NCBI GenBank assembly: GCA_945897885.1
Contig: CAMDGU010000002.1
Coordinates: 18,307-82,306, forward strand
Direction: 5' to 3'
Length of the DNA: 64,000 bases
DNA from: Chitinophaga pinensis
GTDB lineage: Bacteria; Bacteroidota; Bacteroidia; NS11-12g; UBA9320
The notes under the pieces were generated by a model, which was not told where the DNA came from, searched no databases, and saw nothing but the letters and a program-made list of their open reading frames with translations. Shown here piece by piece: positions 1 through 51,410 of this stretch. How positions within the stretch are numbered: position 1 is the first letter of the stretch; each line of letters begins with the position of its first letter. A program made the position numbers and the translations under genes.

Positions 1-236
1 AAGAGCCAACCAGTTATTGGGTTTAAAACGGGAGTCAAAACAACTATTAATTGAAATTCAGTAATTAAGTTTGTTTATTTTTAATCTTTCTTGTTGCTCT
101 TTATATTTGAGCATTTTTTTTAATACCTTTATATTTATGTAACCTGCATAATTAGAAGGATTATTAAGATCCCCAAAGCCCTGTTTTTTTGCTACCTTTT
201 AATACTATATTTGTAGGGCTTGGCATTTCAAAAAAA

Positions 237-3200: not shown

Positions 3201-6200
3201 TGGGATATAATCGTATCAAATACTAAAAGTGGAAGTTCGATTACTAATTTATGGCTTTCCAATTCATCACCCAAAAATGCCAAAGTTCTGGCAGTTAAAG
3301 ATTTGTTAACCGGTAATAACTTATCAGTAAAAAATGGAATATTCAAAGCAGGAGTTTTATCATCCACTGCTACCCGCTCTTTTAGAATTTTAGCTTCCAG
3401 TACGAATTGTAAACTAGATAGTTTTAAAATAGCTGTGGGCTGGAACTGTGACAGCTATCCAGACAGTTTGGAAGCTTATTCCTGTAAAAATTTATTAAAT
3501 TATGTTAATCTTATTTTAAGTCCCATTCCTCCCTTAATAATAAGCACCCTTATTGAAGATACAGCCCAAACAGACGTTTGTACCAATCGAAATTACAAGG
3601 TAATTATTGCCAATGTTGATGAGGACAATATTTATGGACTTAAACTAAAAGTTACTATTCCTGTAGGAACTAAAATTGTTGATACCGGAATGTACTATTC
3701 TTTTCCTTATGGCAGTAAATTATTGAAATTACCTAAACCGATTTTAGTTTCTGGAAGTACATATGAATGGGCTTTGAGTGATAGTTTAAGTGCTTTAAAA
3801 AATGGTTTGGAAAAAGTATCCGATACTTTAAAAAGCAGAATCCGTTTGCAGTTTTTATTAGAAACCAATTGTCAGATTACAGCAGGAGCTTTTGTTTCAA
3901 TTATGCCTGATGGGAAAATTGGATGTGGGGAACCTGTAAAAAGGCTAGGATTTACAGGCCAGCCTATAAAAATTAAAGGGGTTAATAATCCTTATTATTC
4001 AATCATTACCTTAACCCCGGATAGCATAAATTTATGTAACCCTTCGGTAGCTTTTAAATCAAAAATAATTTATTTAGGGCCCACCAATACCTTTGATAAT
4101 GATTCCTTAATACTTATAATGCCTATAGGTTTTGAGCCGGATACAGCGTCCTTAAAAACAATAAAAATTAACGGGCGAGGTGTTGTAAAAGATGTGAGTG
4201 GAGAAAAACGCTGGCTATGGTCTATCCCAAAAGGATTATTGCCGGGCGATTCATCAATGATAGAATTTAAGCTTAAAATTACCAATAAGGCTCCCTCCTG
4301 TGGTTCTGAATTATTTACAATACAGTCACTTACCAAGAAAAAAGCGTATTGCGTAAAATCGAATGACAGTTGTGATATAAATGTGGCAACAGGTAGTTTT
4401 TTTAAAGCTTTTAAACTTGACCGAGCTGAACCAATCATCAAATTAATTAGTTCTGTTTCCTCCAATTCTGGTGACACAGGAGAAATAATAGATATTGCTT
4501 TTAAAGTTACCAATAATAAAAAAACGATTGACACAGCCATTAATTCTACTTTTTATTTAATAGTAGATAAAAACCAGAATAATAAGTATGACAAATCTGA
4601 TTTATTGATTAAAAAATTTACTAAAACCAAAGGTTGGATTACAAGCCAGCAAATTAATTTTTCTTTCAAGGGTTTTGTAAACAACTCTGACATTTGTCGG
4701 TTGGTTATTGTTTCAGATTCAAATAATTGTCAATGTCTTAGAAATATACTTCCATTACTAAATATTCAATTAAAAAATGCAGGAAGAGATACAAGTTATT
4801 GTTCTAATAATTCAGTATTTGTTGGACTTGATTCTATTAAAAAATATAAATACGAATGGTTGCCAACAGATTATTTAAGCTTGCCATATCAATCAAAATC
4901 CATCTATAAAAAAGCTAATTTTTCTAATTTAGACCTCACCCAAACCTATATTTTAAAAACGACTCGTCCGGGTGGGTGCAAAACTTATGACACAGCGGTA
5001 ATAAAGGCTAAATCTTATATATACTTGCCTAAATTAAAAGATACTTCAGCTATCTGTGAAGGAGGCATTATTCAAATAGGAGACACCGCTAAGGGAGGTA
5101 AAGGTGCACTTTCATATAGTTGGACTCCCAATTCAGGATTATCCTCATACAGCAAAATGGTTGTTAACGCAAATCCGAAAATTTCAACAAAATTTTTTAT
5201 TAAAATAAGTGACCAAAACAATTGCTCAATAAAAGATTCAATATATTTAAAAGTTGCAAAACTTCCTTTGGTAAAGATTGGAAATATTGGCTCATGCGAA
5301 AAGCGAAACATTCAATTTCTTGATAGAAGTAATTATTTTAGTCAACAAAAAGGTAATGCTATTTGGCGAATTGATTTTAATACAATTACACAGACTGACC
5401 CAACGTTTGTATTTGACACTATTGGTTTATACTTCGTTAGATTAATTGCATCAAATCAATACGGATGTAAGGATTCAGGCTATAAATATATAAGAATAAA
5501 TGGCAATCCTATCGTTTCAAATCTCAAGATTAATCAATGCTCGGGTGATTCTGTAATATTAACCGATAAATCAAAAGTGGCTCTTATAGGAATAAAAACT
5601 GTTACGTGGCGATTTGCAGCCGATTCGATTATTGGAAAAGTAGTCTCAAAGATTTTTACAACAAAAGGAAATTACAAATTCACACAAATTGTTAAAAGTG
5701 ATTCCGGTTGTATTAGTTATTTAGAAGATTCATTAATACTTTATGATAAACCCAAAGCCGGTATTTCTATTATTGGTAAATGTTTAAACGACACCATACT
5801 ATTTTCAGACAATTCCAAATTCAGTGTTAACGATTCAATTAGTATTTATCACTGGGAAATTGAAGATAAGAAATTTTTTGGGAAACAGGCCAAACTAAAG
5901 TTTGATACCACAGGTAGGTATAACGTTGCACTGAGAATAAACACTCTTAAAGGGTGTTCTGATTCATTTAAGAAATCATTTATTATGAACACCTTCCCTA
6001 ATGTATCTTTTGGCATTTCAAATTATTGTCCCTATGATACCATCAAATTATCAAACTCTACCACTCTATCTAAAGGAAGCATAAAAAAATATGAGTGGAA
6101 TATTGGTAATCTTTATAATTCAAATTTAAAATCACCGGTTATTGATCCATTAAAGGAAGGTAATTATACAATAAAACTAAAAGCTATTTCTGATTCATTA

Positions 6201-7641: not shown

Positions 7642-7717
<76 letters not shown>

Positions 7718-7788: not shown

Positions 7789-7872
7789 ACCCGGGTGGTG
7801 GAATCGGTAGACACGCAGGACTTAAAATCCTGTGGCTTTGCGGCTGTACGGGTTCAAGTCCCGTCCCGGGTA
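7789..7872 (+). tRNA. tRNA-Leu (anticodon TAA), long variable arm, CCA not encoded
   Basis: Acceptor ACCCGGG/CCCGGGT, D-arm GTGGAATCGGTAGAC, anticodon stem CAGGA/TCCTG with loop CTTAAAA, long variable arm, T-arm ACGGGTTCAAGTCCCGT, discriminator A. Confidence 0.85.
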
Positions 7873-8041
7873 CATATTGAACGCTAAAATTCAACCTATT
7901 AACGTAAACCGAAAAACCTTTTCGAAAAAAGTGGTAAAAACTGTGTTTGGTTTTCTCCAGGACGAGACAGAAAAAAGAAATACAATTATTAAATGCCTTT
8001 GTCGTTCTGATATTATAACTGAAATTTGCAACCTATAAAAA

Positions 8042-8881
8042 ATGAAAAGAACAATTTTTCCTACATTACTTATGATTTTTGTTTTGTCATCTTGCGTTAG
8101 CAAAAAAATACACAAAAAAAAAGTATCTGAATGTGATTCAATAAAAACTTCCTATGAAAAAGTTCATCATGAACTTGACATTTGTCTTAGTGAAAAGGAA
8201 CAAAAATCAGAAAAACTAAAAAATATTGAAAGCGAATTAGCCTATATAAAATCAGTAAGTACAAATTTACTTCAACAATTAAATGACCTATCAATTATTA
8301 CCAACTCTCAAGCTGAGAGCATTAAAAAATCATTAGAAAATATTAACTCAAAAGACCTTTATATTAAAGGTTTGCAAAAAGAAATGTCAAGAAAAGATTC
8401 TTTAAACATGGCATTGGTTTTAAATCTAAAAGGAGCCCTAAAAGATGTAAATGATGATGATATACAAATAAATGTGGAAGGAAGTGCTGTATTTATTTCC
8501 ATCTCAGATAAAATGTTATTCAAAAGCGGCAGTTATGAAATTTCAACTGAGGCCAAAAATGTGCTGGGAAAAGTAGCAGATGTTATAAAAGCTCAACCCA
8601 AAATACAATTTATGGTTGAAGGGCATACCGACAACAAACCTATTTATAAGGTAAATATTAAAGATAACTGGGATTTAAGTGTATTAAGAGCTACAGCTGT
8701 TGTTAGATCATTACAACTTGATTATGGAATAGAACCAAACCGCATGATTGCAGCAGGACGAGGCGAATATGTTTCTGTAGCATCTAACGATACGGAAGAT
8801 GGTAAATCCCAAAATCGCAGAACACGAATTGTTATTTTGCCTGAACTTGACCAATTTTTCAAGTTATTTGAAGCAAAGTAA
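8042..8881 (+). CDS. OmpA/MotB-family lipoprotein with N-terminal coiled-coil region and C-terminal OmpA-like peptidoglycan-binding domain
   Basis: Lipoprotein signal MKRTIFPTLLMIFVLSSC. Heptad-rich segment of about 120 aa. C-terminal VEGHTDN...LSVLRATAVVRSL...NRRTRIVILP is the OmpA_C signature. Confidence 0.75.
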   Translation: MKRTIFPTLLMIFVLSSCVSKKIHKKKVSECDSIKTSYEKVHHELDICLSEKEQKSEKLKNIESELAYIKSVSTNLLQQLNDLSIITNSQAESIKKSLENINSKDLYIKGLQKEMSRKDSLNMALVLNLKGALKDVNDDDIQINVEGSAVFISISDKMLFKSGSYEISTEAKNVLGKVADVIKAQPKIQFMVEGHTDNKPIYKVNIKDNWDLSVLRATAVVRSLQLDYGIEPNRMIAAGRGEYVSVASNDTEDGKSQNRRTRIVILPELDQFFKLFEAK

Positions 8882-34623: not shown

Positions 34624-36501
34624 TTATGCCTCTATTTCTTGAGCCTCTTCCACCGGAACATAGTCAGTATCCAACTCAATTACTAAATTATTAATTATAA
34701 ATTCTTGCCGTTCAGGAGTATTTTTACCCATATAGTAATCCAAAATTTTCTCAATTGAAATTTCCTGAGTTACGATAACAGGGTCTAATCGTATTTCCTC
34801 ACCTATAAACAATCCAAATTCATCCGGACTTATTTCTCCTAATCCTTTAAATCGTGTTATCTCTACTTTATCTTTAAGTTTTGTAATGGCTGCTTGTTTC
34901 TCAACTTCGCTGTAACAATAAATTGTTTTTTGTTTATTTCTTACCCTAAACAAGGGGGTATCTAAGATATACAAATGTCCATTACGCACGAGGTCAGGGA
35001 AAAATTGCAAAAAGAACGTCATTAATAGTAAACGTATGTGCATTCCGTCCACATCAGCATCTGTAGCCACTACAATATTGTTATATCTTAAATTTTCTAA
35101 ACCATCTTCAATATCTAAGGCGTGTTGAAGTAGGTTAAACTCCTCGTTTTCATATACAACTTTTTTGGTTAAACCATAACAATTTAAAGGCTTTCCCCTT
35201 AAACTAAAAACTGCCTGTAAATCTACGTTTCGTGATTTTGTAATACTTCCACTTGCTGAATCACCCTCGGTTATAAAAAGGGTGGTATTGTAGCGGGTTT
35301 CATCTTTTTCATCGGTAAAATGAGTTCTGCAATCTCTTAACTTCTTGTTATGTAAATTTGCTTTTTTAGCCCTTTCATTTGCCAGTTTACGAATGCCTGC
35401 CATTTCCTTACGTTCTTTTTCGCTTCGCGAAATACGCTTGAGCATGGCCTCAGCTATGGTAGGGTTTTTGTGAAGGTAGTCGTCTAAGTGTTTTTTTATG
35501 AAATCATAAATAAAAGCTTTAACGGTTGGCCCATCCGGCCCCATATCAGCACTTCCCAATTTTGTTTTGGTTTGAGACTCAAAAACAGGCTCCTGAACCC
35601 TAACACTTAATGCAGCTGTTATACAAGAGCGAATATCGCTGGCATCAAAATCTTTTTTATAAAACTCGCGAATGGTTTTTACAAACGCTTCTTTAAAGGC
35701 TTGTAAATGCGTTCCACCTTGTGTAGTATTTTGTCCATTAACAAAGGTGTGATAATCTTCACCGTAATGGTTATCGTGAGAAAAAGCCAATTCGATATCA
35801 TCTGCTTTTAAATGAATGATGGGATAATTAAGTTCATCCTCATTGGTTTTGCGTCGCAGCAAATCCAATAAACCATTTTTGGAAAAAAACTTATTACCAT
35901 TATAGTTAACAGTAAGTCCAGAATTAAGATAAGCATAATTCCAAAGTTGGTTGTCTATAAACTCGTTAATAAACCGGTAATGTTTAAAAATAGAATCATC
36001 CGGTATAAATTCTATCATAGTGCCGTTGGGTTGGTCTAACTCAAGGTCTTTTTCACCAATTAATTCTCCTTTAGCAAATTCAGCTATCTTGCTTTTTCCT
36101 TCTCTTACTGATTGAACTTTAAAATAATTTGATAAAGCATTTACCGCTTTTGTACCCACCCCGTTTAGTCCTACTGATTTTTGAAAGGCTTTGGAATCAT
36201 ATTTTCCACCAGTGTTTATTTTTGAGACACATTCCAAAACCTTTCCTAATGGAATTCCTCTGCCAAAATCACGTATAGTTGCTTTGCCTTCTTCTATTTT
36301 AATATCAATTTTACTGCCATTTCCCATAACGTGCTCGTCTATGGAATTGTCAATAATTTCTTTTAGCAATACATAAATACCGTCATCGGCAGATGAGCCA
36401 TTGCCCAACTTACCTATGTACATACCCGGCCTGAGACGGATATGTTCCTTCCAATCAAGGGATTTTATGCTATCTTCGTCATATCTTACTTCTTGTGCCA
36501 A
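34624..36501 (-). CDS. parE: DNA topoisomerase IV subunit B (GHKL ATPase + TOPRIM)
   Basis: [12 protein letters not shown] ATPase motifs, and TOPRIM EGDSA. 625 aa, which is ParE-length rather than GyrB-length. Confidence 0.8.
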
Positions 36502-36735
36502 TTGGATAGTTTTTATTAGGAAATGCGAATTTAAAGACCTAACTGATTTTTGTATTCAAAAGATATAAACAAAGCACTTACAAACTAGGGACACAGGTAT
36601 AAAATCTTATACTTTACCCGTTAAAACAAAACAATTAAACAAATTTTATTTGCAGGTAATCACTTTAAAGTAGTTTCATTATTTACTATCACCACAGCGC
36701 ACTTCGTTGTAATTAATTATTTATAAACACCTTAA

Positions 36736-36768
36736 ATTAATTAATAACTAACCTAGTTATTAATTAAT
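36736..36768. promoter_or_regulatory. Perfect 15-bp inverted repeat with 3-bp spacer (ATTAATTAATAACTA-acc-TAGTTATTAATTAAT); candidate operator upstream of the T9SS cargo / SprF operon
   Basis: Read directly from the sequence. Centred about 50 nt upstream of the ATG at 36802, in the 300-bp spacer between the divergent parE and the T9SS cargo gene. Confidence 0.5.
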
Positions 36769-36801
36769 AATATTAATTTGCACTCTATATCTTTTAAAAC
36801 G

Positions 36802-39800
36802 ATGAAACTAAAAATACTTTTAATGTTATGTGTACTGGCTTTTGCACCATCGCTTCAGGCCGCCCGATGGTATGTAAATGTGAACACTGGTGATGACTCT
36901 TATAATGGAAAAGATTCCGTTTGGGATTTTGCAACTACAGGCCCAAAAAAAACCATTAGTAATGCCATTTTTTCGGCATTCTGGAATGATACAATCTATA
37001 TTTCGGAAGGAATCTATCAGGAAATTCTATTGGTAGACAAACCATTGGTAATTAGAGGTAATAACTGGGGAATAAACCCATTAACAACCAAACGTAAAAA
37101 TGAAACACTAATTGTTCCTCCTTATCAAGCGTTAGGTTCCAGCATTTCGGGTAATTCAGTTATTGAAATTTTATCCGGCTATATTGATATTGATGGTTTA
37201 AAAATATTGGGTGATAACTCTATTATTCCATCGAGTTCCACTAAGTTTGGGTTAGAATATGATATTTCATTTGGAATAGGAGGCAATGGAATATATAATG
37301 ATCTTAGCTTATCAAATCTTATCATTTCACATTTTGCAACTGCCGGTATCTATTTTTCTGGCGGTATCATAGCTAATTCCGGCAATAAAATAGAAAATTG
37401 CAAAATCAAAACCGGTGATTTTTATTCAGAAGGGATAATTTTAAATGATAATTTTTATTGTGATTTAAATTTCATTACCATCGATTCTACTTATAAAGGA
37501 ATAAGTTTCAATACCTTTTCAGATAGAAGCAGCAAGTCTTATACTACATCCTATTTGAACATAGCTTCTGAAATAAGTGGCATTGCATTAAATAACTTTT
37601 CTGGTAACGTGGATTCACTAAACTTTGAATATAATGTTCTGAATCCCTTTGATGCTAATATAGATTTCACAGGATTTGATATAATTAATCTTAATTCTAA
37701 GGGTTACTTAAGAATTTCGGATAATGTTATAAACAATGCTCACAAGGGAGTTTTTATTAAAAATCACGGAAAAAATCATAAAATTAATTTTAATGCAAAC
37801 AAGTTTACAAATGGACACAATGGTATTGATATTTTTCAACCTTCAACTGCAATTGCAGATAATTTAACCTTTAATAAATCAGAATTTAAAAATTTAAATA
37901 ATTCAGCCATCCATGCACATTCCGAAGGAGGTATTTTATCAATTTCGATAAATGATACTAAAATTGGACAATCTTCTAATGGAGTTCAACTCTATGGTAA
38001 TTCAACAATTACCCCAAACAACACTGAGTTTTCGGATATAACAAACTATTATTTTTTCCTAGATTCAACATTATCAGGGCTTAAACCTTTTACTAATATA
38101 GATGCAACAGGATGTTATTATCAAGGAACACTTGGGAATAACCTAACAACCGCTGAATCTTTTTTAGTAGAAGATAAAATTCGGCACTACCTTGATAAAA
38201 GTTATATAGCGTGGATTTTATTTAATAATCAAGACCTTTTTGTAACGGCAAATGATGGAAACACAAAACTTTCATCAGCAGTTACTATAGCAAGCAACAG
38301 CTGGAATATTTATACCAAAAAATTAAATAATACCGAAACTGTAACCATTGGTAAAACACTACATTTATATCCTGAGAAAACTTCTGTTATTGGAAAAATT
38401 GTAATGCTAAGTAAAAACAAAACTTTGTATTTGCACGGAAAAATAAGTTTGAGCACCGGTTTAGAAATGATTCAAGGTTTTATTGAAACAACCACCTCTG
38501 ACAGTTTAATTGTGTATAGAAATAATTTAACAACTGTTTTAAAACCCGGGAATAGTTTAAGCTACATTAAAGGTCCATTTTATATAAAATATCATAATCT
38601 GCCTACCGGCTATTCTATTATTGATACGGTTCCTGCCGGTTTGGATAACGATTACAGACCAATTTATTTAAATGCAACATGGCCAAGTATTAGTGAAGCA
38701 ATCATTGGTTTTAAAAGTTTCATTGGCAAAGCACCTATAAGCAATTTACCTTCAACAATATCTCACATTTCGGATATCAGATATTGGTATATCTACGAGC
38801 CTTATTTATCATCAGGCTTGTCATTCAATTCTGTTGGCTTCTTATATGATAGTATTGCAACTAACGATTTGGTAAATGATCCTGCTAACTTAAGAATTGT
38901 GTATAATACTTCGGGAAACAGTTTTAATATTGGAGGAGCTGGTACTTTACCTAAAAATGGCACTATTAATAATACAATTAGTACACCAGGTTTTGGAACC
39001 TATACATTAGGCAATGCCAAAGGTGGTAATAATGTCTTATCCACCAATGAACCTATAGCAATCATAAAAACATCAGGTCATTGCTTAAATGATTCAATAA
39101 CAATCTCTGCCAGCAATTCTCGTTCTGATTCAGCAATTGCTATATGGGAATGGTCTGTTACAGGCCCGTCAACAATAATTACAACCGAAAATAAAGAAAC
39201 CATTAAAAAGAAAATAAATGTAGCAGGAAATTATACCGTTAAGTTGGTTGTTTTTAATAAAAAAGGATACTCGGATACGGCAACTCAAGTAATCACTATT
39301 GACGCCATTCCTTTGATGAGTTATACTTCAAAATCACCTTGTTTCCCAATCACCTTAGAAGCCTTTAATACATCAACCCTACCCCCATTTTCAAGTATTC
39401 AGGAAATTGAGTGGAAAATAAACGCTTCCTATTATTCAACTCCTAACCTAAAATATACACCATCCATCTCAGGTCTTCAAAAAGGGTATTTAAAAATAGT
39501 ATTAGACAACGGTTGTTCTGATACTATTGCAATTGCGGTTAACTCTCCTGTTCCTCCTACTATTACTTTAATTCCTAACGGTGATATCAAACGTTGCTCT
39601 GGCGATAGCGCCGTAGTTCTTGTAAATAAATCTACAGGTACGGTAGTTTGGAACGATGGCAAAAACTACGATACTCTAATTTTAAAATCAAATACCTTTA
39701 AAAAAGCTGTGATTTCACGATCTGCTGAATGTTTTACTTCTGATAGTTTAACATTTACAATTCTTGAACGCCCTACGGTAGATGCCGGACCAGGCTTTAC

Positions 39801-40263
39801 AACTATGCCGGGAAAACCTGTAACCTTTAAAGGCACTTCAAATGGAATGGTAGAATGGTTACCGGCAACATGGTTAAGTGATCCGACTGAACTTACCCCC
39901 ACATCTCGTCCATTGACCACCACTAAATATATTTTACGGGCTTCAAACCTTGTAGGTTGCGAAGCAAAAGATTCATTGGTTGTAAAAGTTGAAACCGAGA
40001 CTATAGCAGTTCCTAATTTACTTACTCCTAATGGTGATGGACACAACGATACTTGGGTTATTAATAATATTCCCGACTTGAGTAAGTGTTATGTTAATGT
40101 GTTTACAAGAGAAGGCATGTTGGTTTACTCCGCGTCACCTTATAAAAACGATTGGAATGGCACACGTGATTCATCTGTTTTGCCTGATGGTTATTATGTT
40201 TATGTTATTGAAAACAAAAACACAGGAAAAGTTTATACCGGTATTTTAAATATTATTAAGTAA
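36802..40263 (+). CDS. T9SS cargo protein: signal peptide, right-handed beta-helix repeat region, PKD/Ig-like domains, C-terminal type-B T9SS sorting domain
   Basis: Signal MKLKILLMLCVLAFAPSLQA from ATG 36802 (the ORF-track start is a TTG). Repetitive N/G/I-rich beta-helix segments. C-terminus VPNLLTPNGDGHNDTWVI...NVFTREGMLVYSAS...WNGT...DGYYVYVIE matches the type-B CTD. Confidence 0.85.
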   Translation: MKLKILLMLCVLAFAPSLQAARWYVNVNTGDDSYNGKDSVWDFATTGPKKTISNAIFSAFWNDTIYISEGIYQEILLVDKPLVIRGNNWGINPLTTKRKNETLIVPPYQALGSSISGNSVIEILSGYIDIDGLKILGDNSIIPSSSTKFGLEYDISFGIGGNGIYNDLSLSNLIISHFATAGIYFSGGIIANSGNKIENCKIKTGDFYSEGIILNDNFYCDLNFITIDSTYKGISFNTFSDRSSKSYTTSYLNIASEISGIALNNFSGNVDSLNFEYNVLNPFDANIDFTGFDIINLNSKGYLRISDNVINNAHKGVFIKNHGKNHKINFNANKFTNGHNGIDIFQPSTAIADNLTFNKSEFKNLNNSAIHAHSEGGILSISINDTKIGQSSNGVQLYGNSTITPNNTEFSDITNYYFFLDSTLSGLKPFTNIDATGCYYQGTLGNNLTTAESFLVEDKIRHYLDKSYIAWILFNNQDLFVTANDGNTKLSSAVTIASNSWNIYTKKLNNTETVTIGKTLHLYPEKTSVIGKIVMLSKNKTLYLHGKISLSTGLEMIQGFIETTTSDSLIVYRNNLTTVLKPGNSLSYIKGPFYIKYHNLPTGYSIIDTVPAGLDNDYRPIYLNATWPSISEAIIGFKSFIGKAPISNLPSTISHISDIRYWYIYEPYLSSGLSFNSVGFLYDSIATNDLVNDPANLRIVYNTSGNSFNIGGAGTLPKNGTINNTISTPGFGTYTLGNAKGGNNVLSTNEPIAIIKTSGHCLNDSITISASNSRSDSAIAIWEWSVTGPSTIITTENKETIKKKINVAGNYTVKLVVFNKKGYSDTATQVITIDAIPLMSYTSKSPCFPITLEAFNTSTLPPFSSIQEIEWKINASYYSTPNLKYTPSISGLQKGYLKIVLDNGCSDTIAIAVNSPVPPTITLIPNGDIKRCSGDSAVVLVNKSTGTVVWNDGKNYDTLILKSNTFKKAVISRSAECFTSDSLTFTILERPTVDAGPGFTTMPGKPVTFKGTSNGMVEWLPATWLSDPTELTPTSRPLTTTKYILRASNLVGCEAKDSLVVKVETETIAVPNLLTPNGDGHNDTWVINNIPDLSKCYVNVFTREGMLVYSASPYKNDWNGTRDSSVLPDGYYVYVIENKNTGKVYTGILNIIK

Positions 40264-40269
40264 AAAATC

Positions 40270-41586
40270 ATGAAGTTAATTCGTATATCAATATTAGCAG
40301 TAGTTTGCAGTTTATCTCATTCAGCTATTGCACAACAAACGCCCTTGTTTGGATTTAATTCGTATTTATTAAATGTTTCTAATCCTTCCATGACAAGAAC
40401 TGTATCACCTGTCAATGTTACATTGGCAGGAAGAAAATACTGGACCGGTATTCAAGGAAGTCCCGAAGCATTTATAGGATCTTTTTCCATGTCTCCTTCT
40501 CAATATAAATCAGCTTTTGGTGGTTTCTTTTGGGCCGAAAAAGCTCCTATGATGAACAAACAAGTAATGGGATTAAATTATGCCTATGCAATTAAGAACA
40601 TGGACGAATCAAATAACCTAAGATTTGGAGCAGGTCTTGATTTTATATCCGTAAGTTCAAATACATCCTCTATTTTAACACCAGATTACAACGATCCATT
40701 TTATACAGCATTATTAAACAATACTCGTTCATCTGTTGACTTCAGAACCGGGGTTACGTGGAATAATGAATTACTTGAAATTGGAGTAGCTATGCAACAG
40801 CTTATTCAAAGTAAAAATACTGTTGGTGAAACGATTAATGGAAAGTTGGTTTTTAATAATCCTTTAATTACAAATGGACACGTTAAATACACCATAGCTC
40901 CGAGCGAAGATGTTAAAATTACCCCTTTGGTATTTTGGCAGGTACAAAATGCTATTCCTGTAAGAGTTGATATAAATGTGTTAGCTGAAAAAACTGGCAA
41001 ACTTTGGGGTGGGGCTTGGTTAAGACCAAAATCAGGATACGGTGTTATGGGCGGATTATGGGTTTTACCTGATGTAAAAGTTGGCTATATGTATGAAAAA
41101 TCTTTTTTCAAAGGTTTAACAAAACTTGGGAATTCACATGAATTAATGGTAAGCTATTCTCCAGCTAAAAAAGATAAAGAAGAAATTGATACGGATAAGT
41201 ATGAGGCTCCAAAACCTGCTGAAAAACCTATGCCTAAAATTATAAGGGTTAGAGATACCATTGTAATTGTTAAAGAAACCCGTGTTATTGAAACCGTTAA
41301 AGAACCCTCTAAATCTTCAACCCCTCCTACCAAACCAACATCACCTAAGGCGACTACTACAGGTTATTTCTATATCATTACCGGACTTTATTCTTTAGAA
41401 AGCAATGCCAAATTATTGGTTAAAAAACTAGAAGCCGATGGCTACAAAGCATCATTAATTAAAAAACCTGACACCGAGCAGTTCTATGTTTCAGTTGGTA
41501 GTTTTAAAACAAGTGAAGAAGCTCAACAATACAAATCAAGTCATCCTAATCCAAAATACACCTTTTGGGTAAAGGAAATCAAATAG
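40270..41586 (+). CDS. PorP/SprF-family T9SS outer-membrane protein fused to a C-terminal Pro/Thr-rich linker and SPOR (peptidoglycan-binding) domain
   Basis: N-terminus after the signal peptide, QQTPLFGFNSYLLNVSNPSMT, matches the PorP/SprF start motif. About 300-aa beta-barrel region. Linker PKPAEKPMPKI...STPPTKPTSPKATTTG. C-terminal YFYIITGLYSLESNAKLLVKKLEADGYKASLIKKPDTEQFYVSVGSFKTSEEAQQY is SPOR-like. 6-nt gap to the cargo gene. Confidence 0.75.
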   Translation: MKLIRISILAVVCSLSHSAIAQQTPLFGFNSYLLNVSNPSMTRTVSPVNVTLAGRKYWTGIQGSPEAFIGSFSMSPSQYKSAFGGFFWAEKAPMMNKQVMGLNYAYAIKNMDESNNLRFGAGLDFISVSSNTSSILTPDYNDPFYTALLNNTRSSVDFRTGVTWNNELLEIGVAMQQLIQSKNTVGETINGKLVFNNPLITNGHVKYTIAPSEDVKITPLVFWQVQNAIPVRVDINVLAEKTGKLWGGAWLRPKSGYGVMGGLWVLPDVKVGYMYEKSFFKGLTKLGNSHELMVSYSPAKKDKEEIDTDKYEAPKPAEKPMPKIIRVRDTIVIVKETRVIETVKEPSKSSTPPTKPTSPKATTTGYFYIITGLYSLESNAKLLVKKLEADGYKASLIKKPDTEQFYVSVGSFKTSEEAQQYKSSHPNPKYTFWVKEIK

Positions 41587-41602
41587 AATATTTCATTAAA
41601 TC

Positions 41603-41632
41603 AAAAAGCCCTTTATCCATAAAGGGCTTTTT
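41603..41632. terminator. Bidirectional rho-independent terminator (perfect 13-bp stem AAAAAGCCCTTTA / TAAAGGGCTTTTT, 4-nt loop)
   Basis: Read directly. Lies between the convergent sprF-SPOR stop (41586) and the usp stop (41659). Confidence 0.8.
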
Positions 41633-41658
41633 GATTTAAATGATTTAGGTGTCTAGCC

Positions 41659-42558
41659 CTAATAAAATCCGTCAGTACCTTCGTATTTAAAGGCGGTTTC
41701 TTTAGGGTGAATGCACATTACAGGAACTTTACTTACACGGTTTACTATTTGCTGTGCTTCCGATCCAAAAATAAATTCAGAGAATCCTTTTTCTTGCTGT
41801 GTCATTATCAAAATTAAATCAGCTCCAATTTCGTCAGCATACTTTAAAGTATCTACACCCAAGTGGCCCGGGAATCTCTCTTCATCCAATTCAAAAATTA
41901 CAGCTTTAACACCGTTTTGTTCAAGTATATTTTTAACCTGATAAATAGTGGCTCTAATTTTGTTATGTAAAAATTCATCGTCTTCAACTTCGGAAATAAT
42001 GTGAACTTCAGAGTTATATTTTTTGGCAATATGAATAGCCCAGGTAACTTTTTGTTTTGATTCTTTGGTTAAATCTATTGGTAAAACCAATTTTTCATAA
42101 CGGCCTTTCTTTGGAAACTCGTTAACAATAATAACCGGAACATTTGCATAACTCATAACACGGGAAGCGGTACTTCCAATAATCTGATCAATCCCTTCTG
42201 CACCTTTCGTTCCCATAATTATGCTATCACAGCCCACTTTTTCGGCTATTTCAACAATAGCTTTGTACACTTTGCCCGAATGAATTAAATAGCTGATTTT
42301 TAAAGCAGGGTATTTCGCCAGTACTTCGCTTTTCAGTTCGTTCATCTTTAAATCAATGCCGGTTTTGATAAGGTCATTCTTACTTCCACTGCCACCAAAT
42401 AAACTTGAAAGGTAACTTTCCTCTAAAACGTGAACCATCACGATATCATTCCCAAAAATTTGGGCGTGATCGGCAGCATGCAAAAGGGCATTGTGAGAAG
42501 TTTTAGAAAAATCAATTGGAACAATAATAGCTCGGTCGTTAGGAATAATGTTATTCAT
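41659..42558 (-). CDS. Universal stress protein, tandem UspA domains
   Basis: Two USP domains (IIVPIDFSKTSHNALLHA...; VLPIDLTKESKQKVTWAIHIA...). 299 aa. Confidence 0.8.
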   Translation of the reverse strand: MNNIIPNDRAIIVPIDFSKTSHNALLHAADHAQIFGNDIVMVHVLEESYLSSLFGGSGSKNDLIKTGIDLKMNELKSEVLAKYPALKISYLIHSGKVYKAIVEIAEKVGCDSIIMGTKGAEGIDQIIGSTASRVMSYANVPVIIVNEFPKKGRYEKLVLPIDLTKESKQKVTWAIHIAKKYNSEVHIISEVEDDEFLHNKIRATIYQVKNILEQNGVKAVIFELDEERFPGHLGVDTLKYADEIGADLILIMTQQEKGFSEFIFGSEAQQIVNRVSKVPVMCIHPKETAFKYEGTDGFY

Positions 42559-46100: not shown

Positions 46101-48521
46101 TTACAATTTCAAAACCTTATAGTTGTAAACCGCTTGGCCAATGGTCAATTTCATTACATAAACTCCTTTGGTTAAATGCGAAATATTGGTACTTGATGTT
46201 TCAGAAATGGCAGTAGCATACACCATTTTACCCTCAAAATTATAAAGATAAAACGTAGCATCAACTGCCTCTTTAGCGTTGCCAATTGTAATATTTAAAT
46301 TGGTTTCCACCGGATTATTAAAATGTATTTCATAAGGCTTAACCCCTTGTTTTGCAATACTTCCGGTAGGTACATACTCCTTAAACTGAGATTTAAAAAT
46401 TCCCCGCCCATGAGTAAATATATAAATAACCCCGTTTTTTGGGTGCGATACAATTTTGTAAATAGGAACATTAGGTACGGCCTCCTCTTTAGACCAAGTA
46501 GTTCCTCCATCAGCCGTGGTATACAATCCAAAATCGGTACCGGCTATAATTTGGTTACTATCCTGCGGATTTACTTCAATGCAATTAACAGGTAATGAAG
46601 CCGGCAAATTTCCGCTAATATTTATCCAAGTTGGCGCAGTGCTTTCCGCATTATTCAATTTCCATATACGTGGTTTTGTATTTATATCCGACATGGAAAT
46701 ATACACCGTGTTAGGATTGGTATGGCTCACTTTAATGCTGTTAATAACCGAGCCTTTGGCCAATGTTGGTGCCGTGCTTGTTAAATCAACTTCGCTTAAA
46801 GTAGCAGTGGATGCTTTAGTACAGCGGTATAAGGTTGTTCCTGAGCCACCAAAATATACCGTGGGATTGGTTTGATAACTTAATCCCATGGATATTACAT
46901 CTTTATTAAGTGACTTTGTAAGTTCAGTCCAATTGTTTCCGGCCGTGGTAGAAACTAGTATTCTTCTTTTTGATAAAACGTATACCTGATTTCCATCCAA
47001 AGGATTTACATCAAACGAATTTATAAACCAATAGCTGTAAGAGCCTATTGGTTTAATATTGGTTTCGCCTGTAAAATATTGATTTAAGCGACGTATTTCA
47101 CCATTTTGATACGAGACATAAGTATAATAAGGCGGTGAAGATGAAAAAGCGCAATAGGATCCATCGCCGCCAAAAACCTTTTTAAATCCCCAAACACTAA
47201 GGGCGTGGGTTCCATTATCCTGCGAACCGGCTAAACAATCGCTTGTATTTAACGGATTGTAATTTCCTGTGTAAAATTGAGTAATGTTTAATCCATTATT
47301 TAAAGCTGAATTACTTGTAAGTGCGGTTTTACTATTAAACCGATACACTCCGCCATCATTACCAATTAACAAATTACGCCCGGATGGATAAAACATACTG
47401 GTATGAAAATCGGCATGACTTTCGGCCAGTTCATTCCATGAGGCTCCCCCATTTATCGATTGCATTGCTTTTACCGAAATAGCGATCACATAATTGGTAT
47501 CAATAGAACTTACATTGGTATTTAAACAATACCAACCCCAGCTATAAACTGTGCTGGATGGAGAAGTTAACTTTTTCCAGGTAACTCCGTGGTTAGAAGT
47601 TTTATAAATTCCAACTAAAGCATTCCCACTTGTATTTAGTACTTGGCAAAATGCCACATTAGGAAACCTTTCCGAATAGTTCATACTTATTCTTCCAATT
47701 CCTGATGATGGAAGGGTATTGGTAAATCTGGTAAATTTCATGATACTGTCTTCCGAAGCAGTTATTAAACCATATCCTTCTAACCCAAACCATATAGTGG
47801 AATCTTTGTAGGTTAAAATTTCATGCACCGATTTAGAAGAATTATAAACCGCTTTAAATGTTAGTCCATTATCAATGGTTCGGTATAGTCCGCCATTACC
47901 CGTACCTAAATAAAATGTGGAACTATCTGTTTTTGAATATTCAATATCCCAAATAGACGCAAATGGAGCTAAGGTGGCGGTAGAAGGCAACTGTGTGAAT
48001 GTTTTTCCGCCATCTACGGATTTAAAAACCCCTGCACCATCCAACCCAATATTATTATTCATTATTTCTCCTGTGCCATAATATATTTCTTTAGGATTAA
48101 ATGGATTTTGTGTGATACAAGTTACAGCCATTGAAAGGTTTTGTTCATTTACCGGAGTCCAGTTTTGCCCACCATTAGTTGAAACCCACAATCCACCTGA
48201 TACACCGCCGGCAAATAAATGCAAACTATCTGATGCATCAATTAGTAAAGCTCTTACCCTACCGGCCACATTATTGGGCCCCATCTCTGTAACAAAACTT
48301 AAAATACCGGATGATTTCTTATTCAACTTATCAAATTTGTTCCAGCTATTGCGAAGGCCATAATAGTTTACCCCTTCGGTTAAATTTTTCATGGTACTGT
48401 ATTGTTCCTGCCACCCGGGCTGCTGAACTGATTTTTGTGGTTTGGGTGCTCTGAAATTTAAAAGAATGATGCTTATACCTATAAAGCTAAGCAGAAAAAT
48501 AGCCTGTTGTGTTACCCTCAT
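46101..48521 (-). CDS. T9SS cargo protein with BNR/Asp-box beta-propeller repeats (sialidase/xyloglucanase-like fold) and a type-A C-terminal sorting domain
   Basis: At least six Asp-box motifs (STNGGQNW, SVDGGKTF, TIDNGLTF, SINGGASW, TTAGNNWTE, TADGGTTWS). C-terminus ...ISHLTKGVYVMKLTIGQAVYNYKVLKL is a type-A CTD. Start re-placed at ATG 48521 (MRVTQQAIFLLSFIGISIILLNF). Confidence 0.8.
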   Translation of the reverse strand: MRVTQQAIFLLSFIGISIILLNFRAPKPQKSVQQPGWQEQYSTMKNLTEGVNYYGLRNSWNKFDKLNKKSSGILSFVTEMGPNNVAGRVRALLIDASDSLHLFAGGVSGGLWVSTNGGQNWTPVNEQNLSMAVTCITQNPFNPKEIYYGTGEIMNNNIGLDGAGVFKSVDGGKTFTQLPSTATLAPFASIWDIEYSKTDSSTFYLGTGNGGLYRTIDNGLTFKAVYNSSKSVHEILTYKDSTIWFGLEGYGLITASEDSIMKFTRFTNTLPSSGIGRISMNYSERFPNVAFCQVLNTSGNALVGIYKTSNHGVTWKKLTSPSSTVYSWGWYCLNTNVSSIDTNYVIAISVKAMQSINGGASWNELAESHADFHTSMFYPSGRNLLIGNDGGVYRFNSKTALTSNSALNNGLNITQFYTGNYNPLNTSDCLAGSQDNGTHALSVWGFKKVFGGDGSYCAFSSSPPYYTYVSYQNGEIRRLNQYFTGETNIKPIGSYSYWFINSFDVNPLDGNQVYVLSKRRILVSTTAGNNWTELTKSLNKDVISMGLSYQTNPTVYFGGSGTTLYRCTKASTATLSEVDLTSTAPTLAKGSVINSIKVSHTNPNTVYISMSDINTKPRIWKLNNAESTAPTWINISGNLPASLPVNCIEVNPQDSNQIIAGTDFGLYTTADGGTTWSKEEAVPNVPIYKIVSHPKNGVIYIFTHGRGIFKSQFKEYVPTGSIAKQGVKPYEIHFNNPVETNLNITIGNAKEAVDATFYLYNFEGKMVYATAISETSSTNISHLTKGVYVMKLTIGQAVYNYKVLKL

Positions 48522-48638
48522 TTGTTTTGCGAAGATAAAAAATAAACAGCAAACTCTTACTTCAATAAACGAATGCCTGTTTTGAATTAACAAAAAATGG
48601 CTTCGGAATGAGAATCAAAAGACAAAATAAATGTGATT

Positions 48639-51410
48639 TTATTGGAGCACCACTACCCTAATATTATACCATTGATTTTGGCTTTTAATTAATATAAAAT
48701 AAGTTCCCATTCCATATTCACTCAAGTCAATACGGGTGTTGGATGGATTTGAATTGTGATAAATAAGTTCTTTACCTAATAAATCAACTACTCGTATTTC
48801 AGCTTGTGCAGGTAATCCTTTAATAGTAAATATACCCGAAGCTGAAGGATTTGGATAGACACTTACATCCTTAAAAATTGGATTAGAAATGCCTACTTTG
48901 GCAAATTGAAACGAATCGGAAGTTGCACTGCAATTAGAATCATTGGTAACTTTTACAAAATAAAAACCATCTTTTGGTGGATTAAAATCCTGTTGATTAG
49001 CACCCGTTATCGGCCCATTTTTATCCAACCACTGATTACCCGCGGCTGAACTTGAACTTAGAATATTTTTATTAACGCTTATACCCGGCTTTACTGGTGA
49101 GGCATTAACTCTCAAAGTAGCCGAAACCGAATCGCGGCAACCAAAATAGTTTACCACCCGGTATTCTATTTTATAAACCCCTTTGCCTTTTGCAGAAGGA
49201 CTAAATTTAGAACTTTGCACATTGTTAACCCAATAGGTTCCGCTATCAGCCGGTTGCCCTCCCGTTAAAGTTATATCCGCAGTATTATCACACAAACTAG
49301 ATAATTTTGAAAACGATACTTTAGGTGCCTCTGATATATAGATTCTTGCGGAATCTTTAACATCGCACAAATGCGCATCTGTTATTGAATAATATACCCA
49401 CTGCCACCCTTTAGAAGCAAAAAGAGGATAAAAATTTTGACCAACTACGGCACTTCCTTTTAACACACCTCCTGCTGGATAAGTGTTAATGGCAATTGGC
49501 TCGTCAAAATTACAAGCCTTATCTTTTAAGGTTATAGAAATGCTGTCGGGTTTATAAATATTGATATTAAAATTGGCCTTGCTAACACAGGTATTGGCTT
49601 TGGTCATCAAATAGGTAATCTTGTGAGAACCTTCGCCGGCTGTAATGGGATTAAAGGTTGTTGAAGACACCCCTTTTCCGGAATACTTGCCACCTGTTGG
49701 GGTAATATTATTTAAAGTGAAGGAGTTAGCACCCGTGCATATAGATGATATTGGGGTAACCGTAAGTTTAGCTGTATCCAAAATTTTTGCGGTAATAGAT
49801 GCCCGGTTTATACAGCTATTCGTATCCACATAATTATAAAATATAGCAAAATTACCTGCTCCTAAATTTTTAGGATGAAAATAACCGTTTGAAGTTACCC
49901 CTTTACCTGTAAAATATCCTCCCGATGGGGTTCCCTGACTTAATTTAATACTATCACTGTTTTCACAAGTTGTTATACTAGAATTCCAGGTAACAGAGGT
50001 GCTTCTGCTGTTCACTGCCATTTGCGAACTTGTAAAACTGCATGAGGTACCTTTTCTGGTAAGTTTTACTTTATAATTTCCTACTGAGCTGGCCCACATT
50101 GTCCTTTTGGTTTTTCCTGCTAAAATGCCACCATTTTTGTACCACACATAAGTAAAAGAATCATTTCCCTGAGCTGTAATTAACAAACTATCTCCTCCGC
50201 AAAACCAGTCTTTATTGAAAGCTGTTATTAAAAGTTTTGTACTATCTGTTTGAAATAAATTCATTACAAATTCATTTTTAGTTTGTTTTTTGATAACCAA
50301 GCTATCCCCTATATCATAAAATTTTGAAGGGGTATAATTCCATGTTCCTCCATTTCCTAAAGGCTTCGCAAGCATATCCACTCCACATTTTTTTGCACCT
50401 TTGGTCTTGGCCAAATTTGTAAAATTATAATTTATATCAAATCCAACAGCAGAATTATCAGAATAATACACCGTGAAATAATGCGAGGAATCAAACGTTC
50501 CAGCCACATTTTTTCCATAAAAACTTGGGTTATAATCGTAATTTACAATGGCATGCAACGTGCTTGGAGCTCCGTTAATATTATTTACATTAAATACATC
50601 ATGATATTTTGTTTTAAGCGATAATTTATTTGCACCATAAACATAAACGCTACTATCACCCAAGGCGGCTCCCGACGAAACCCAGCGAGGACTGTTGTTT
50701 AATGCAGCTGTATTAGCATTTGATGATTTATCAGATGCATTTATCCCTGTTCCTTCATCCAGCTTATAGTAAGCTCCTAAGTTACCATAATTAGGATGCA
50801 GGGTTGTTACTTTTCGGCACATCCAATCTCTGATTGTAGTTTTGGTTAAGGCGGCGTTCCAAACTCTTACTTCATCTATTTGTCCTTTAAACAAACGACT
50901 TCCACCTGTGGTATAAGCCAAATCACCAATTTTTGCTGCCAAACCTGTTGAAGGACTTATTGACCCTGAATAAGGAACTGAGGCCTCTAGATTTCCATTA
51001 ATATATACCGAAACACTATCCCCGTTAAAAGTTCCTGCTACATGATACCACATACCAGTTTTCATTACAGATGCGGAAACAGCCTCAACCCATACTCCTG
51101 AAGAATTTGCAATATTGAAATTAACTTTGCCATTATCACCACACCTTAGCACATAGCCTTTATTGCCACTAGCCCAACCATGCTTACATAAAATACTATT
51201 TCCAAAATTTGTAGTACTAAATGCATCTGCTTTAATCCATGCCTCAACCGTTATCTTGGTCGTTGGGTTTATTGCTGTAATGTCTGGAATTGAAATAAAA
51301 TCATCTAGACCGTCAAACTCTACAGCCGTTAATGAGCCTGGTTTTTGAGAGAAAGAAATAAAAGTGAGATAAAAAAAGAAAAAGGAAATAGCACCTATTT
51401 TTTTAAGCAT
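48639..51410 (-). CDS. T9SS cargo protein: N-terminal LamG-like (concanavalin A-like lectin/glucanase) domain, several Ig/PKD-like domains, type-A C-terminal sorting domain
   Basis: LamG-like block ...KITVEAWIKADAF...YVLRCGDNGKVNFNI...WYHVAGTFNGDSVSVYINGNL...GQIDEVRVWNAAL. C-terminus VSVYPNPSASGIFTIKGL...YFILIKSQNQWYNIRVVVLQ. Confidence 0.8.
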   Translation of the reverse strand: MLKKIGAISFFFFYLTFISFSQKPGSLTAVEFDGLDDFISIPDITAINPTTKITVEAWIKADAFSTTNFGNSILCKHGWASGNKGYVLRCGDNGKVNFNIANSSGVWVEAVSASVMKTGMWYHVAGTFNGDSVSVYINGNLEASVPYSGSISPSTGLAAKIGDLAYTTGGSRLFKGQIDEVRVWNAALTKTTIRDWMCRKVTTLHPNYGNLGAYYKLDEGTGINASDKSSNANTAALNNSPRWVSSGAALGDSSVYVYGANKLSLKTKYHDVFNVNNINGAPSTLHAIVNYDYNPSFYGKNVAGTFDSSHYFTVYYSDNSAVGFDINYNFTNLAKTKGAKKCGVDMLAKPLGNGGTWNYTPSKFYDIGDSLVIKKQTKNEFVMNLFQTDSTKLLITAFNKDWFCGGDSLLITAQGNDSFTYVWYKNGGILAGKTKRTMWASSVGNYKVKLTRKGTSCSFTSSQMAVNSRSTSVTWNSSITTCENSDSIKLSQGTPSGGYFTGKGVTSNGYFHPKNLGAGNFAIFYNYVDTNSCINRASITAKILDTAKLTVTPISSICTGANSFTLNNITPTGGKYSGKGVSSTTFNPITAGEGSHKITYLMTKANTCVSKANFNINIYKPDSISITLKDKACNFDEPIAINTYPAGGVLKGSAVVGQNFYPLFASKGWQWVYYSITDAHLCDVKDSARIYISEAPKVSFSKLSSLCDNTADITLTGGQPADSGTYWVNNVQSSKFSPSAKGKGVYKIEYRVVNYFGCRDSVSATLRVNASPVKPGISVNKNILSSSSAAGNQWLDKNGPITGANQQDFNPPKDGFYFVKVTNDSNCSATSDSFQFAKVGISNPIFKDVSVYPNPSASGIFTIKGLPAQAEIRVVDLLGKELIYHNSNPSNTRIDLSEYGMGTYFILIKSQNQWYNIRVVVLQ

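Follow-up and report, generated by a model that had tools for sequence, protein, structure and literature searches.

The window, as the whole stretch of 64,000 nucleotides analysed here is called, contains a surface-display unit made up of two genes, from a Bacteroidota bacterium. Gene A encodes a secreted β-helix protein and gene B encodes its own outer-membrane partner, which has a built-in cell-wall-binding-type domain. The features of the locus are the following.

36721..36729, + strand: degenerate copy, TTATAAACA, of an upstream motif whose position is conserved (anchored comparison of 10 loci)
36736..36768, no strand: perfect 15+3+15 AT-rich inverted repeat, between the upstream motif and the -7-like box
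36773..36780, + strand: -7-like promoter box, TTAATTTG (anchored comparison of 10 loci)
36802..40263, + strand: gene A, type-B T9SS cargo, 1153 aa (HMMs, sequence reading)
Gene A, about aa 160-420: pectin-lyase-fold β-helix
Gene A, further on: β-rich middle region, then PKD (aa 751-832) and Ig-like modules
40006..40254, + strand: type-B C-terminal sorting domain (CTD) of gene A, CHU_C / TIGR04131 (HMMs)
40270..41586, + strand: gene B, PorP/SprF::SPOR fusion, 438 aa (HMMs, AlphaFold2)
40330..41157, + strand: PorP/SprF outer-membrane β-barrel of gene B, aa 21-296 (HMMs, AlphaFold2, Foldseek)
41158..41358, + strand: Lys/Glu/Pro/Thr-rich linker of gene B, aa 297-363, predicted disordered and putatively periplasmic (AlphaFold2)
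41359..41583, + strand: SPOR-fold domain of gene B, aa 364-438 (HMM, AlphaFold2, profile match)
41596..41639, no strand: perfect 21-bp stem with a 2-nt loop, between the convergent gene B and Usp gene
38470..41860, no strand: recombination tract relative to the nearest relative, L010 (nt identity, dS)

The two genes are tightly coupled. The gene A stop and the gene B start are separated by 6 nt (40264-40269), and by 4-8 nt in orthologs. The cargo-partner pair is kept in 12 of 12 related loci, which have at least three different sets of neighbours. An earlier sequence-only reading had proposed a type-B cargo paired with a cognate PorP/SprF-type protein, and the HMMs, the short spacer and the conserved pair all agree with it. 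The module has two genes only; the next gene, Usp, is convergent with gene B, and a PorE-like gene (TPR, β-propeller, CRD, OmpA_C) is absent from the operon. An OmpA-family gene at 8042-8881 lies 28 kb away, encodes 279 aa and matches OmpA alone in Pfam. No second PorP-like gene was found next to the window's other type-B cargo gene (189-7496), which is followed by two tRNA genes and an OmpA-family gene. Rfam over the 64-kb window returned two tRNAs and nothing else.

The gene A product begins with a Sec-type signal peptide at aa 1-20 (MKLKILLMLCVLAFAPSLQA/ARW), which was read straight from the sequence and is conserved in orthologs. Its CTD occupies the extreme C-terminus (aa 1069-1151 of 1153) and matches TIGR04131 with 54.7 bits (cutoff 35) and PF13585 with 75.8 bits (cutoff 27). 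The exposed pectin-lyase-fold β-helix together with the PKD and Ig-like modules suggests a protein that binds or cleaves glycans, or else an adhesin.

Gene B matches TIGR03519 with 161.1 bits (cutoff 90.55) over model positions 1-291 of 292, and PF11751 with 135 bits (3.8e-39) at aa 21-296. The AlphaFold2 model has a barrel at aa 48-296, with a pLDDT of about 80-93 over most of it, and the top Foldseek match to this barrel is 8gl6_F, a chain of the Flavobacterium johnsoniae T9SS translocon complex, followed by OmpG and FadL. At the other end of the protein, aa 364-423 match SPOR PF05036 with 30.5 bits (cutoff 21). A single-sequence search of the SPOR region against the PDB gave a best E of 0.036, so a family profile was needed for the structure match; the profile of the C-terminal 82 aa matched the CwlC SPOR domain (1x60) at 5.5e-11 and DamX at 0.041. 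DSSP applied to the model gives E366-374, H377-389, E395-399, E404-412, H415-424 and E433-437, a β-α-β-β-α-β fold with a pLDDT of about 80-86. Within the linker between the two domains, one stretch is strongly conserved: P-x-[IV]-[IV]-R-V-x-D-T-[IL]-V-I-V-K-E-x-R-[IV]-x-E (aa 322-341, 41233-41292). The pLDDT is below 50 at aa 321-364, and the placement of the linker and the SPOR domain relative to the barrel carries no confidence. The same reading had taken gene B to be a PorP/SprF barrel, a linker and a SPOR-like domain in one protein. This has held up: over 40270..41586 the N-terminal TIGR03519 and C-terminal PF05036 matches are both above cutoff, the model has the barrel, the disordered linker and the β-α-β-β-α-β domain, and the profile agrees.

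This layout resembles that of Escherichia coli OmpA, in which a single chain carries an N-terminal outer-membrane barrel, a Pro-rich hinge and a C-terminal periplasmic wall-binding domain. The barrel family and the wall-binding fold are different, and OmpA is not a secretion partner protein. The SPOR domain itself shares its Pfam family and fold with those of FtsN, DamX, RlpA and CwlC, but these are found on a division protein, a lytic transglycosylase or an amidase whereas that of gene B is on an outer-membrane barrel.

The distribution of the fusion was surveyed in the 149 nearest relatives of gene B, taken as 50%-identity cluster representatives. At least 74 of the 149 have a SPOR-like C-terminus by the family profile. 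Among the 99 long relatives, 44 carry SPOR and 19 carry OmpA. Three distant PorP-SPOR proteins (about 22-26% identity) are encoded directly after CHU_C type-B cargo genes. In the 4.6-Mb genome CP034120.1, from a cultivable carrier, a PorP-SPOR-like protein of 469 aa is likewise encoded after a CHU_C gene. By these sequence counts, fusion of PorP to a wall-binding-type domain is recurrent, with a large SPOR family beside a parallel PorP-OmpA class. The searchable literature yielded no mention of PorP/SprF together with SPOR, and the source databases already give both Pfam labels for such fusions. The fusion is real, and it is apparently absent from papers yet common in sequence databases. The remark that it was not recognised as described is therefore right as regards papers, but the many fusions found in the survey make it far from unusual.

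Known systems suggest what such a protein might do. In the SprB/SprF and Fjoh_3952/Fjoh_3951 pairs of F. johnsoniae (PMC12618676, PMC9143113) the cargo gene is likewise followed by a PorP/SprF-family gene, and the CTD and the barrel belong to the same HMM families as those of genes A and B. For their partners, however, the descriptions give a barrel and no fused wall-binding domain, whereas gene B has the linker and the SPOR-fold domain. Outside the CTD, gene A is unrelated to SprB and Fjoh_3952. Type-B CTDs and SprF-like proteins form cognate pairs, and operons with PorE-like genes, which were proposed as the wall link in five F. johnsoniae type-B operons, were proposed to make static, wall-anchored complexes (PMC12618676). 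The PorE-PorP-PG1035 complex of Porphyromonas gingivalis bridges the peptidoglycan and the outer membrane (PMC9143113), and PorE function requires its peptidoglycan-binding residues (PMC12773672). The proposed logic of these systems, a surface cargo, a PorP-like barrel and a periplasmic peptidoglycan link, would be shared by genes A and B. In the PorE systems the link is a separate multidomain lipoprotein (TPR, β-propeller, CRD, OmpA_C-like), whereas in gene B a domain of another fold (SPOR, RNP-like), fused covalently to the barrel, would take its place. The relation to PorE is one of functional analogy only; on that analogy, gene B would most likely be a one-polypeptide version of the peptidoglycan-anchored PorP-PorE (OmpA_C) complex.

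The reading favoured here, with moderate confidence, is that the gene A product is held at the surface by the gene B barrel, which is itself fixed to the peptidoglycan through the SPOR-fold domain. Sec would export the gene A product and the type-B CTD would take it through the T9SS translocon. The cognate gene B barrel would bind the CTD, collecting the cargo and keeping it at the cell surface. The C-terminus of gene B would lie in the periplasm, where a flexible linker of about 65 residues would bear the SPOR-fold domain, and this domain would attach the barrel to the peptidoglycan layer. With the barrel so attached, the cargo-partner complex would be fixed and wall-anchored rather than mobile. 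This reading is favoured because the domain HMMs score above curated cutoffs, the folds agree, the pair is conserved, the fusions are recurrent and the PorE-PorP literature provides a precedent. It is weakened by the poor placement of the SPOR domain in the model, by the conserved linker motif at aa 322-341, which it leaves without explanation, and by the loss of a canonical glutamine.

FtsN (Q251) and RlpA (Q270) have, on the exposed face of the sheet, a Gln that contacts the lactyl carboxylate of MurNAc and serves in recognition of denuded glycan (PMC6895207). Unlike these proteins, gene B has I370 at the canonical position. Among 85 PorP-SPOR proteins that are not orthologs, 79 have Val or Ile there and 0 have Gln. 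Because the MurNAc-contacting residue is replaced both here and in the relatives, peptidoglycan binding by this domain may be different or absent. The earlier suggestion of a tether to septal or denuded peptidoglycan has accordingly become uncertain. Its spatial form, that the SPOR domain recognises denuded septal glycan and so concentrates the cargo at division sites or new poles, draws on the characterised SPOR domains, all of which bind the denuded glycans that are enriched at the septum (PMC6895207). The missing Gln speaks against it, as does the nature of the barrel; a BAM-inserted outer-membrane barrel would diffuse little, and septal capture is not obviously possible. Septal targeting is improbable.

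The same substitution gives some weight to a quite different role, in which the SPOR fold does not anchor to peptidoglycan at all. The exposed β-sheet, hydrophobic where a canonical SPOR domain has Gln, would instead bind a protein, for example the periplasmic GldK/GldN (PorK/PorN) ring or the translocon, and the partner barrel would in this way be linked to the machinery of secretion or motility. Loss of the Gln throughout the PorP-attached subfamily would fit, as would the reported PorP-PorK contact (PMC9143113) and the conserved linker motif, which resembles a strand-addition peptide. On the other side, the parallel PorP-OmpA fusions argue that wall attachment is the selected function, and SPOR sequences are poorly conserved, with recognition largely through backbone contacts (PMC6895207). 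Such protein binding is considered unlikely.

Comparison with L010 showed that the locus has a mosaic history. The tract has 72-90% nt identity and a dS of 0.4-1.1, whereas the flanks have about 99-100% identity and a dS of 0.02-0.11. Inside it lie cargo aa 556-1153, gene B in full, the terminator and the Usp gene's 3' end. One breakpoint falls in gene A, at about 38470, and the other in the Usp gene, at about 41860, which rules out the palindrome and the terminator as recombination boundaries. The C-terminal half of the cargo and the partner gene appear to have been replaced together by recombination, as expected if the CTD and the barrel must match. Co-replacement in one tract is only suggestive of physical binding between them. 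A wider proposal is that the PorP-attached SPOR fold is a distinct Gln-less subfamily with a non-classical ligand, and that the CTD half plus the partner gene form a recombining, exchangeable cassette for surface variation. This combination is also thought unlikely. Were the Gln-less subfamily reading true, the partners of many Bacteroidota type-B cargos would connect to a periplasmic structure yet to be described, perhaps the T9SS or gliding ring, perhaps a wall feature specific to Bacteroidota.

Mobile complexes (SprB/SprF) are distinguished from static ones in current models of type-B T9SS cargos, and for the static ones a separate PorE-like protein is proposed as the attachment to the wall. 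The locus and the survey add that many PorP/SprF-like proteins bear a wall-binding-type domain of their own, SPOR or OmpA. The fused domain could serve as a simple sequence-based predictor of likely static type-B cargos, and the compact two-gene system is suited to testing the anchoring model. Two small, testable additions are the absence of the canonical Gln and the joint transfer of the partner gene and the C-terminal half of the cargo. Existing knowledge is not overturned by these findings.

The region upstream of gene A contains a palindrome, ATTAATTAATAACTA-ACC-TAGTTATTAATTAAT, whose 15 perfect pairs are as the sequence-only reading had described. The 64 kb contain just four perfect inverted repeats of 11 bp or more, this one included. 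When DNA was simulated with Markov models, stems of at least 15 arose in 0-0.7% of the runs for all intergenic DNA and in 0% of the runs for the local 300 nt. The palindrome is real, non-random and lineage-specific. It cannot be a parE terminator, since parE transcription runs away from it. When its core TTAATAACTANNNTAGTTATT was searched in metagenome contigs, at least 120 AT-rich chance matches with stems of 8-12 bp were returned; the locus itself is not among the matches listed, and none of those listed resembles the window.

Perfect symmetry, non-random occurrence and a position directly 5' of the -7-like box, at which a protein on the DNA would obstruct the promoter, would suit an operator through which a dimeric repressor controls the gene A-gene B operon. 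Against this, only 13 of the 15 pairs remain in L010, where nothing compensates for the lost ones and the whole loop differs; nt identity to this relative is about 92% across the cargo-side aligned block. The eight other orthologous loci (L001-L008) have no comparable repeat at this position, and no second copy occurs within the 64-kb window. No regulator gene was found in or adjoining the module, and each arm contains a self-complementary low-complexity 10-mer, ATTAATTAAT. By comparison of the loci, conservation upstream of gene A falls on two other elements, a TTATCCACA-like motif and the -7-like box. The box is present in 10 of 10 loci, with its G 18-23 nt 5' of the ATG; the -7 consensus of Bacteroidota is TAnnTTTG. 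The motif reads TTATCCACA in four orthologous loci and TTACCCACA in one, and its end lies 49-52 nt 5' of the G of the box in 9 of 10 loci. A sigma-70 promoter scan gave background matches alone, that model not being meaningful for Bacteroidota. With the palindrome single in the window, degraded in the nearest relative and absent from L001-L008, an operator role is unsupported and quite unlikely, and the description of a self-contained, repressor-controlled module is not supported either.

Downstream of gene B, the proposed terminator hairpin is present, but its stem is 21 bp and not the 13 bp first given. The consensus terminator scanner missed it, since the full extended stem has no T-run after it; the flanking A-run and T-run pair with each other around a GC core (GCCC/GGGC). 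The hairpin, a probable bidirectional intrinsic terminator, has an RNA dG of -29.8 kcal/mol and a z of -6.85.

Gene A, the type-B T9SS cargo gene, and gene B, which encodes the PorP/SprF::SPOR fusion, lie on the same strand and are the sole two genes between flanking minus-strand genes. Gene B starts 6 nt past the gene A stop and its product has 438 aa. The surrounding layout is:

34624-36501, minus strand, topoisomerase IV / gyrase B-type gene, divergent from gene A
36802 (ATG)-40263, plus strand, gene A, 1153 aa
41659-42558, minus strand, universal-stress-protein (Usp) gene, convergent with gene B

The start of gene A was set at the ATG at 36802, not at the TTG at 36778 given by a mechanical ORF list, because all the orthologs begin there, with MK(I/L)K... 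preceded by an A-rich leader. A word-indexed search recovered 23 full-length gene B orthologs (49-100% identity); 22 of the 23 carry both Pfam labels, PorP and SPOR, in the source data and one, P0012, the PorP label alone. The gene A-gene B pair is conserved. It is kept in 12/12 related loci (8 from GTDB-representative genomes and 4 from metagenome assemblies, all freshwater Bacteroidota MAGs with loose taxonomic labels), in which 4-8 nt separate a ~1154-aa cargo from a downstream PorP-SPOR gene encoding 432-455 aa. The housekeeping flanks of the window are common to six loci; other neighbours are found in L005, L006 and L007/L008.

The final 85 residues of gene A form a type-B T9SS sorting domain (PF13585, 3e-21; TIGR04131, 54.7 bits vs a cutoff of 35). 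A PKD domain at aa 751-832 is sub-threshold in Pfam (25.7 bits vs a cutoff of 27), and in the model this region aligns with solved PKD domains at TM-scores of ~0.8 (normalised to the target). Pfam gave no match in the N-terminal 750 residues. The AlphaFold2 model, with an alignment of 16 orthologs as input, has a mean pLDDT of 65 overall and 77-94 over aa 180-410, and bears out the label "beta-helix" given in the sequence-only reading. The fold suggests an adhesin, or a glycan-binding or glycan-cleaving protein, with no catalytic assignment justified.

The same reading had correctly identified the pairing of a type-B cargo with a PorP/SprF protein and the fusion of the latter to SPOR. Both profiles score above cutoff on gene B: TIGR03519 spans it end to end (161 bits, cutoff 90.5) and SPOR PF05036 covers aa 364-423 (30.5 bits, cutoff 21), with PF11751 at aa 21-296. 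The AlphaFold2 model shows a barrel at aa 48-296 (pLDDT ~80-93 for the most part), then a disordered stretch at aa 301-364 (pLDDT <50) and a SPOR-type beta-alpha-beta-beta-alpha-beta domain at aa 366-437 (pLDDT ~83). The closest solved structure is chain 8gl6_F of the T9SS translocon complex from F. johnsoniae, followed by the OmpG and FadL barrels. A SPOR family profile built from the C-terminal 82 residues of 15 members picked up the structure of the CwlC SPOR domain from B. subtilis at 5.5e-11, and only weakly DamX (0.041) and FtsN (0.2). Within the variable, disordered linker the motif PxxIRVxDTIVIVKETRVIE (aa 322-341, window 41233-41292; pLDDT <50) is strongly conserved in the orthologous family and missing in distant PorP-SPOR members. 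The succession of a barrel, a hinge and a putative periplasmic domain resembles that of E. coli OmpA.

Type-B cargos require cognate PorP/SprF-like proteins encoded just downstream (PMC12618676). PorP of P. gingivalis interacts with the type-B protein PG1035 and with the lipoprotein PorE, whose OmpA_C-like domain is a peptidoglycan binder (PMC9143113); PorE function depends on its peptidoglycan-binding residues, which are essential (PMC12773672). F. johnsoniae has five operons consisting of a PorE-like gene, a type-B cargo and a SprF-like gene, and their products are proposed to form static wall-anchored complexes (PMC12618676). By analogy, the gene A/B locus is best taken as this arrangement with barrel and wall-binding module joined in a single protein. 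Whereas the P. gingivalis wall binder resides on a separate lipoprotein, the wall-binding-type module of gene B is within the barrel protein itself.

The C-terminal domain of gene B is a SPOR family member by sequence and fold. Structural studies link recognition of denuded glycan to a conserved Gln that contacts it (FtsN Q251, RlpA Q270) and, on the exposed face of the sheet, to a basic patch (PMC6895207). Aligned with CwlC, gene B has Ile370 (family consensus "YVVTGLF") in place of the Gln of "VQIGAF", and Ser408 in place of the Gln in the second repeat. The first of these positions is Val/Ile in 79 of 85 non-orthologous PorP-SPOR proteins and Gln in none. From these residues, septal denuded glycan cannot be assumed as the ligand. 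Because of this, the earlier idea that the fusion tethers the cargo shuttle to the septum is weakened, the canonical Gln being replaced by Ile370.

Gene B had 2384 matches in an exhaustive HMMER search across 1.84 billion cluster representatives. The aligned set comprised the 149 best representatives, two short fragments among the 150 listed being left out. Length exceeded 420 aa in 112/149, and a family-specific profile found SPOR in 74/149, as well as in ~470-aa relatives with the PorP label alone on record; since a query with a SPOR domain biases the ranking toward SPOR carriers, the count is to be read as a minimum for diversity and not as a frequency. A Pfam scan of 99 long representatives gave SPOR in 44, OmpA in 19, TraF_2 in 18 (probably a related barrel family covering the same region) and DUF748 in 5. 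Three distant PorP-SPOR members (~22-26% identity), one in the complete 4.6-Mb genome CP034120.1, lie directly 3' of a CHU_C-ending gene. At that locus (L014, 6699-16708) the 469-aa PorP-SPOR-like gene is flanked by two CHU_C cargo genes, one of 769 aa upstream and a 2080-aa SprB-repeat protein downstream; both cargos may share this one partner protein. The sequence-only reading did not recognise the fusion as described, and full-text literature searches combining PorP, SprF or "type IX secretion" with SPOR turned up no paper on this architecture, but rare it is not. It is a widespread, apparently undescribed variant of a known anchoring logic.

Upstream of gene A the palindrome at 36736-36768 has perfect 15-bp arms (15+3+15 nt), as first described; only three other perfect inverted repeats in the window reach 11 bp. 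When all 6.9 kb of intergenic DNA was simulated with Markov models, stems of at least 15 arose in 0-0.7% of the runs; simulations of the local 300 nt gave none. The palindrome is non-random. That it serves as an operator is possible but unsupported, because it is not conserved and no regulator gene was found within or adjoining the module; the description as a repressor-controlled module is not supported. In L010, the nearest relative (~92% nt identity over the cargo-side aligned block), the left arm is kept, the right arm has two uncompensated changes and the loop bases are changed 3/3; at this position a comparable repeat is missing from eight other orthologous loci. A window scan allowing up to two mismatches found no further copy beyond chance expectation. 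The loop is ACC in the window (36751-36753) and GGA in L010 (2482-2484), the surrounding 150-nt segments being otherwise ~94% identical; a template-switch type mutation at the hairpin may account for the difference.

Two other elements recur. First, a TTAATTTG-type box precedes 10/10 cargo genes with its G 18-23 nt before the ATG; it resembles the Bacteroidota -7 element TAnnTTTG. Second, a 9-mer ends 49-52 nt 5' of that G in 9/10 loci. Four loci have TTATCCACA and a fifth TTACCCACA, and two mismatches are seen in each of four more, the window (TTATAAACA, 36721-36729) among them; the 9-mer keeps the same relative position in L001-L007 and L010. TTATCCACA is identical to the classical DnaA-box consensus, and DnaA or another factor may bind there. 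The palindrome occupies the otherwise unconserved spacer between the 9-mer and the -7-like box.

Compared with L010, the flanking genes have 99.6-99.8% protein identity and dS of 0.02-0.11, and dS rises to 0.41 for gene A and 0.51 for gene B (dN/dS ~0.13). A sliding comparison places the divergence at ~38470-41860 (72-90% nt identity, dS overall 0.4-1.1, flanks ~99-100%), a block that takes in the cargo from aa 556 to aa 1153, gene B in full, the probable terminator and the Usp gene at its 3' end. Along gene A, dS goes from 0.07-0.11 (aa 1-555) to 0.43-1.10 (aa 556-1153). In this one pairwise comparison the block looks like a recombination import of a divergent allele, because synonymous divergence is elevated under purifying selection; relaxed constraint was rejected as the cause on the same ground. 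The cargo C-terminal half and its cognate barrel appear to have been swapped together. The hairpin 3' of gene B, a perfect 21-bp stem (41596-41639) with a GC core between complementary A- and T-runs, folds as RNA at -29.8 kcal/mol (z-score -6.85); positioned between convergent genes, it is plausibly a bidirectional terminator.

The window holds a second type-B CTD protein, larger than gene A, and further genes:

189-7496, plus strand, 2435-aa cargo with PKD repeats and CHU_C
7642-7717 and 7789-7873, tRNA-Gly(GCC) and tRNA-Leu(TAA), 3' of this cargo
8042-8881, OmpA peptidoglycan-binding domain protein with a lipoprotein-like signal (…LSSC), 279 aa, after the two tRNAs
46101-48593 and 48639-51410, both minus strand, two type-A CTD (Por_Secre_tail) T9SS cargos

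The 2435-aa protein is an "orphan" cargo with no adjoining PorP/SprF gene, and its CTD shares only 29% identity with the gene A CTD. Sortilin/BNR repeats occur in one type-A cargo, a Laminin_G_3 domain in the other. With type-A and type-B cargos both in the window, the organism therefore uses both CTD classes.
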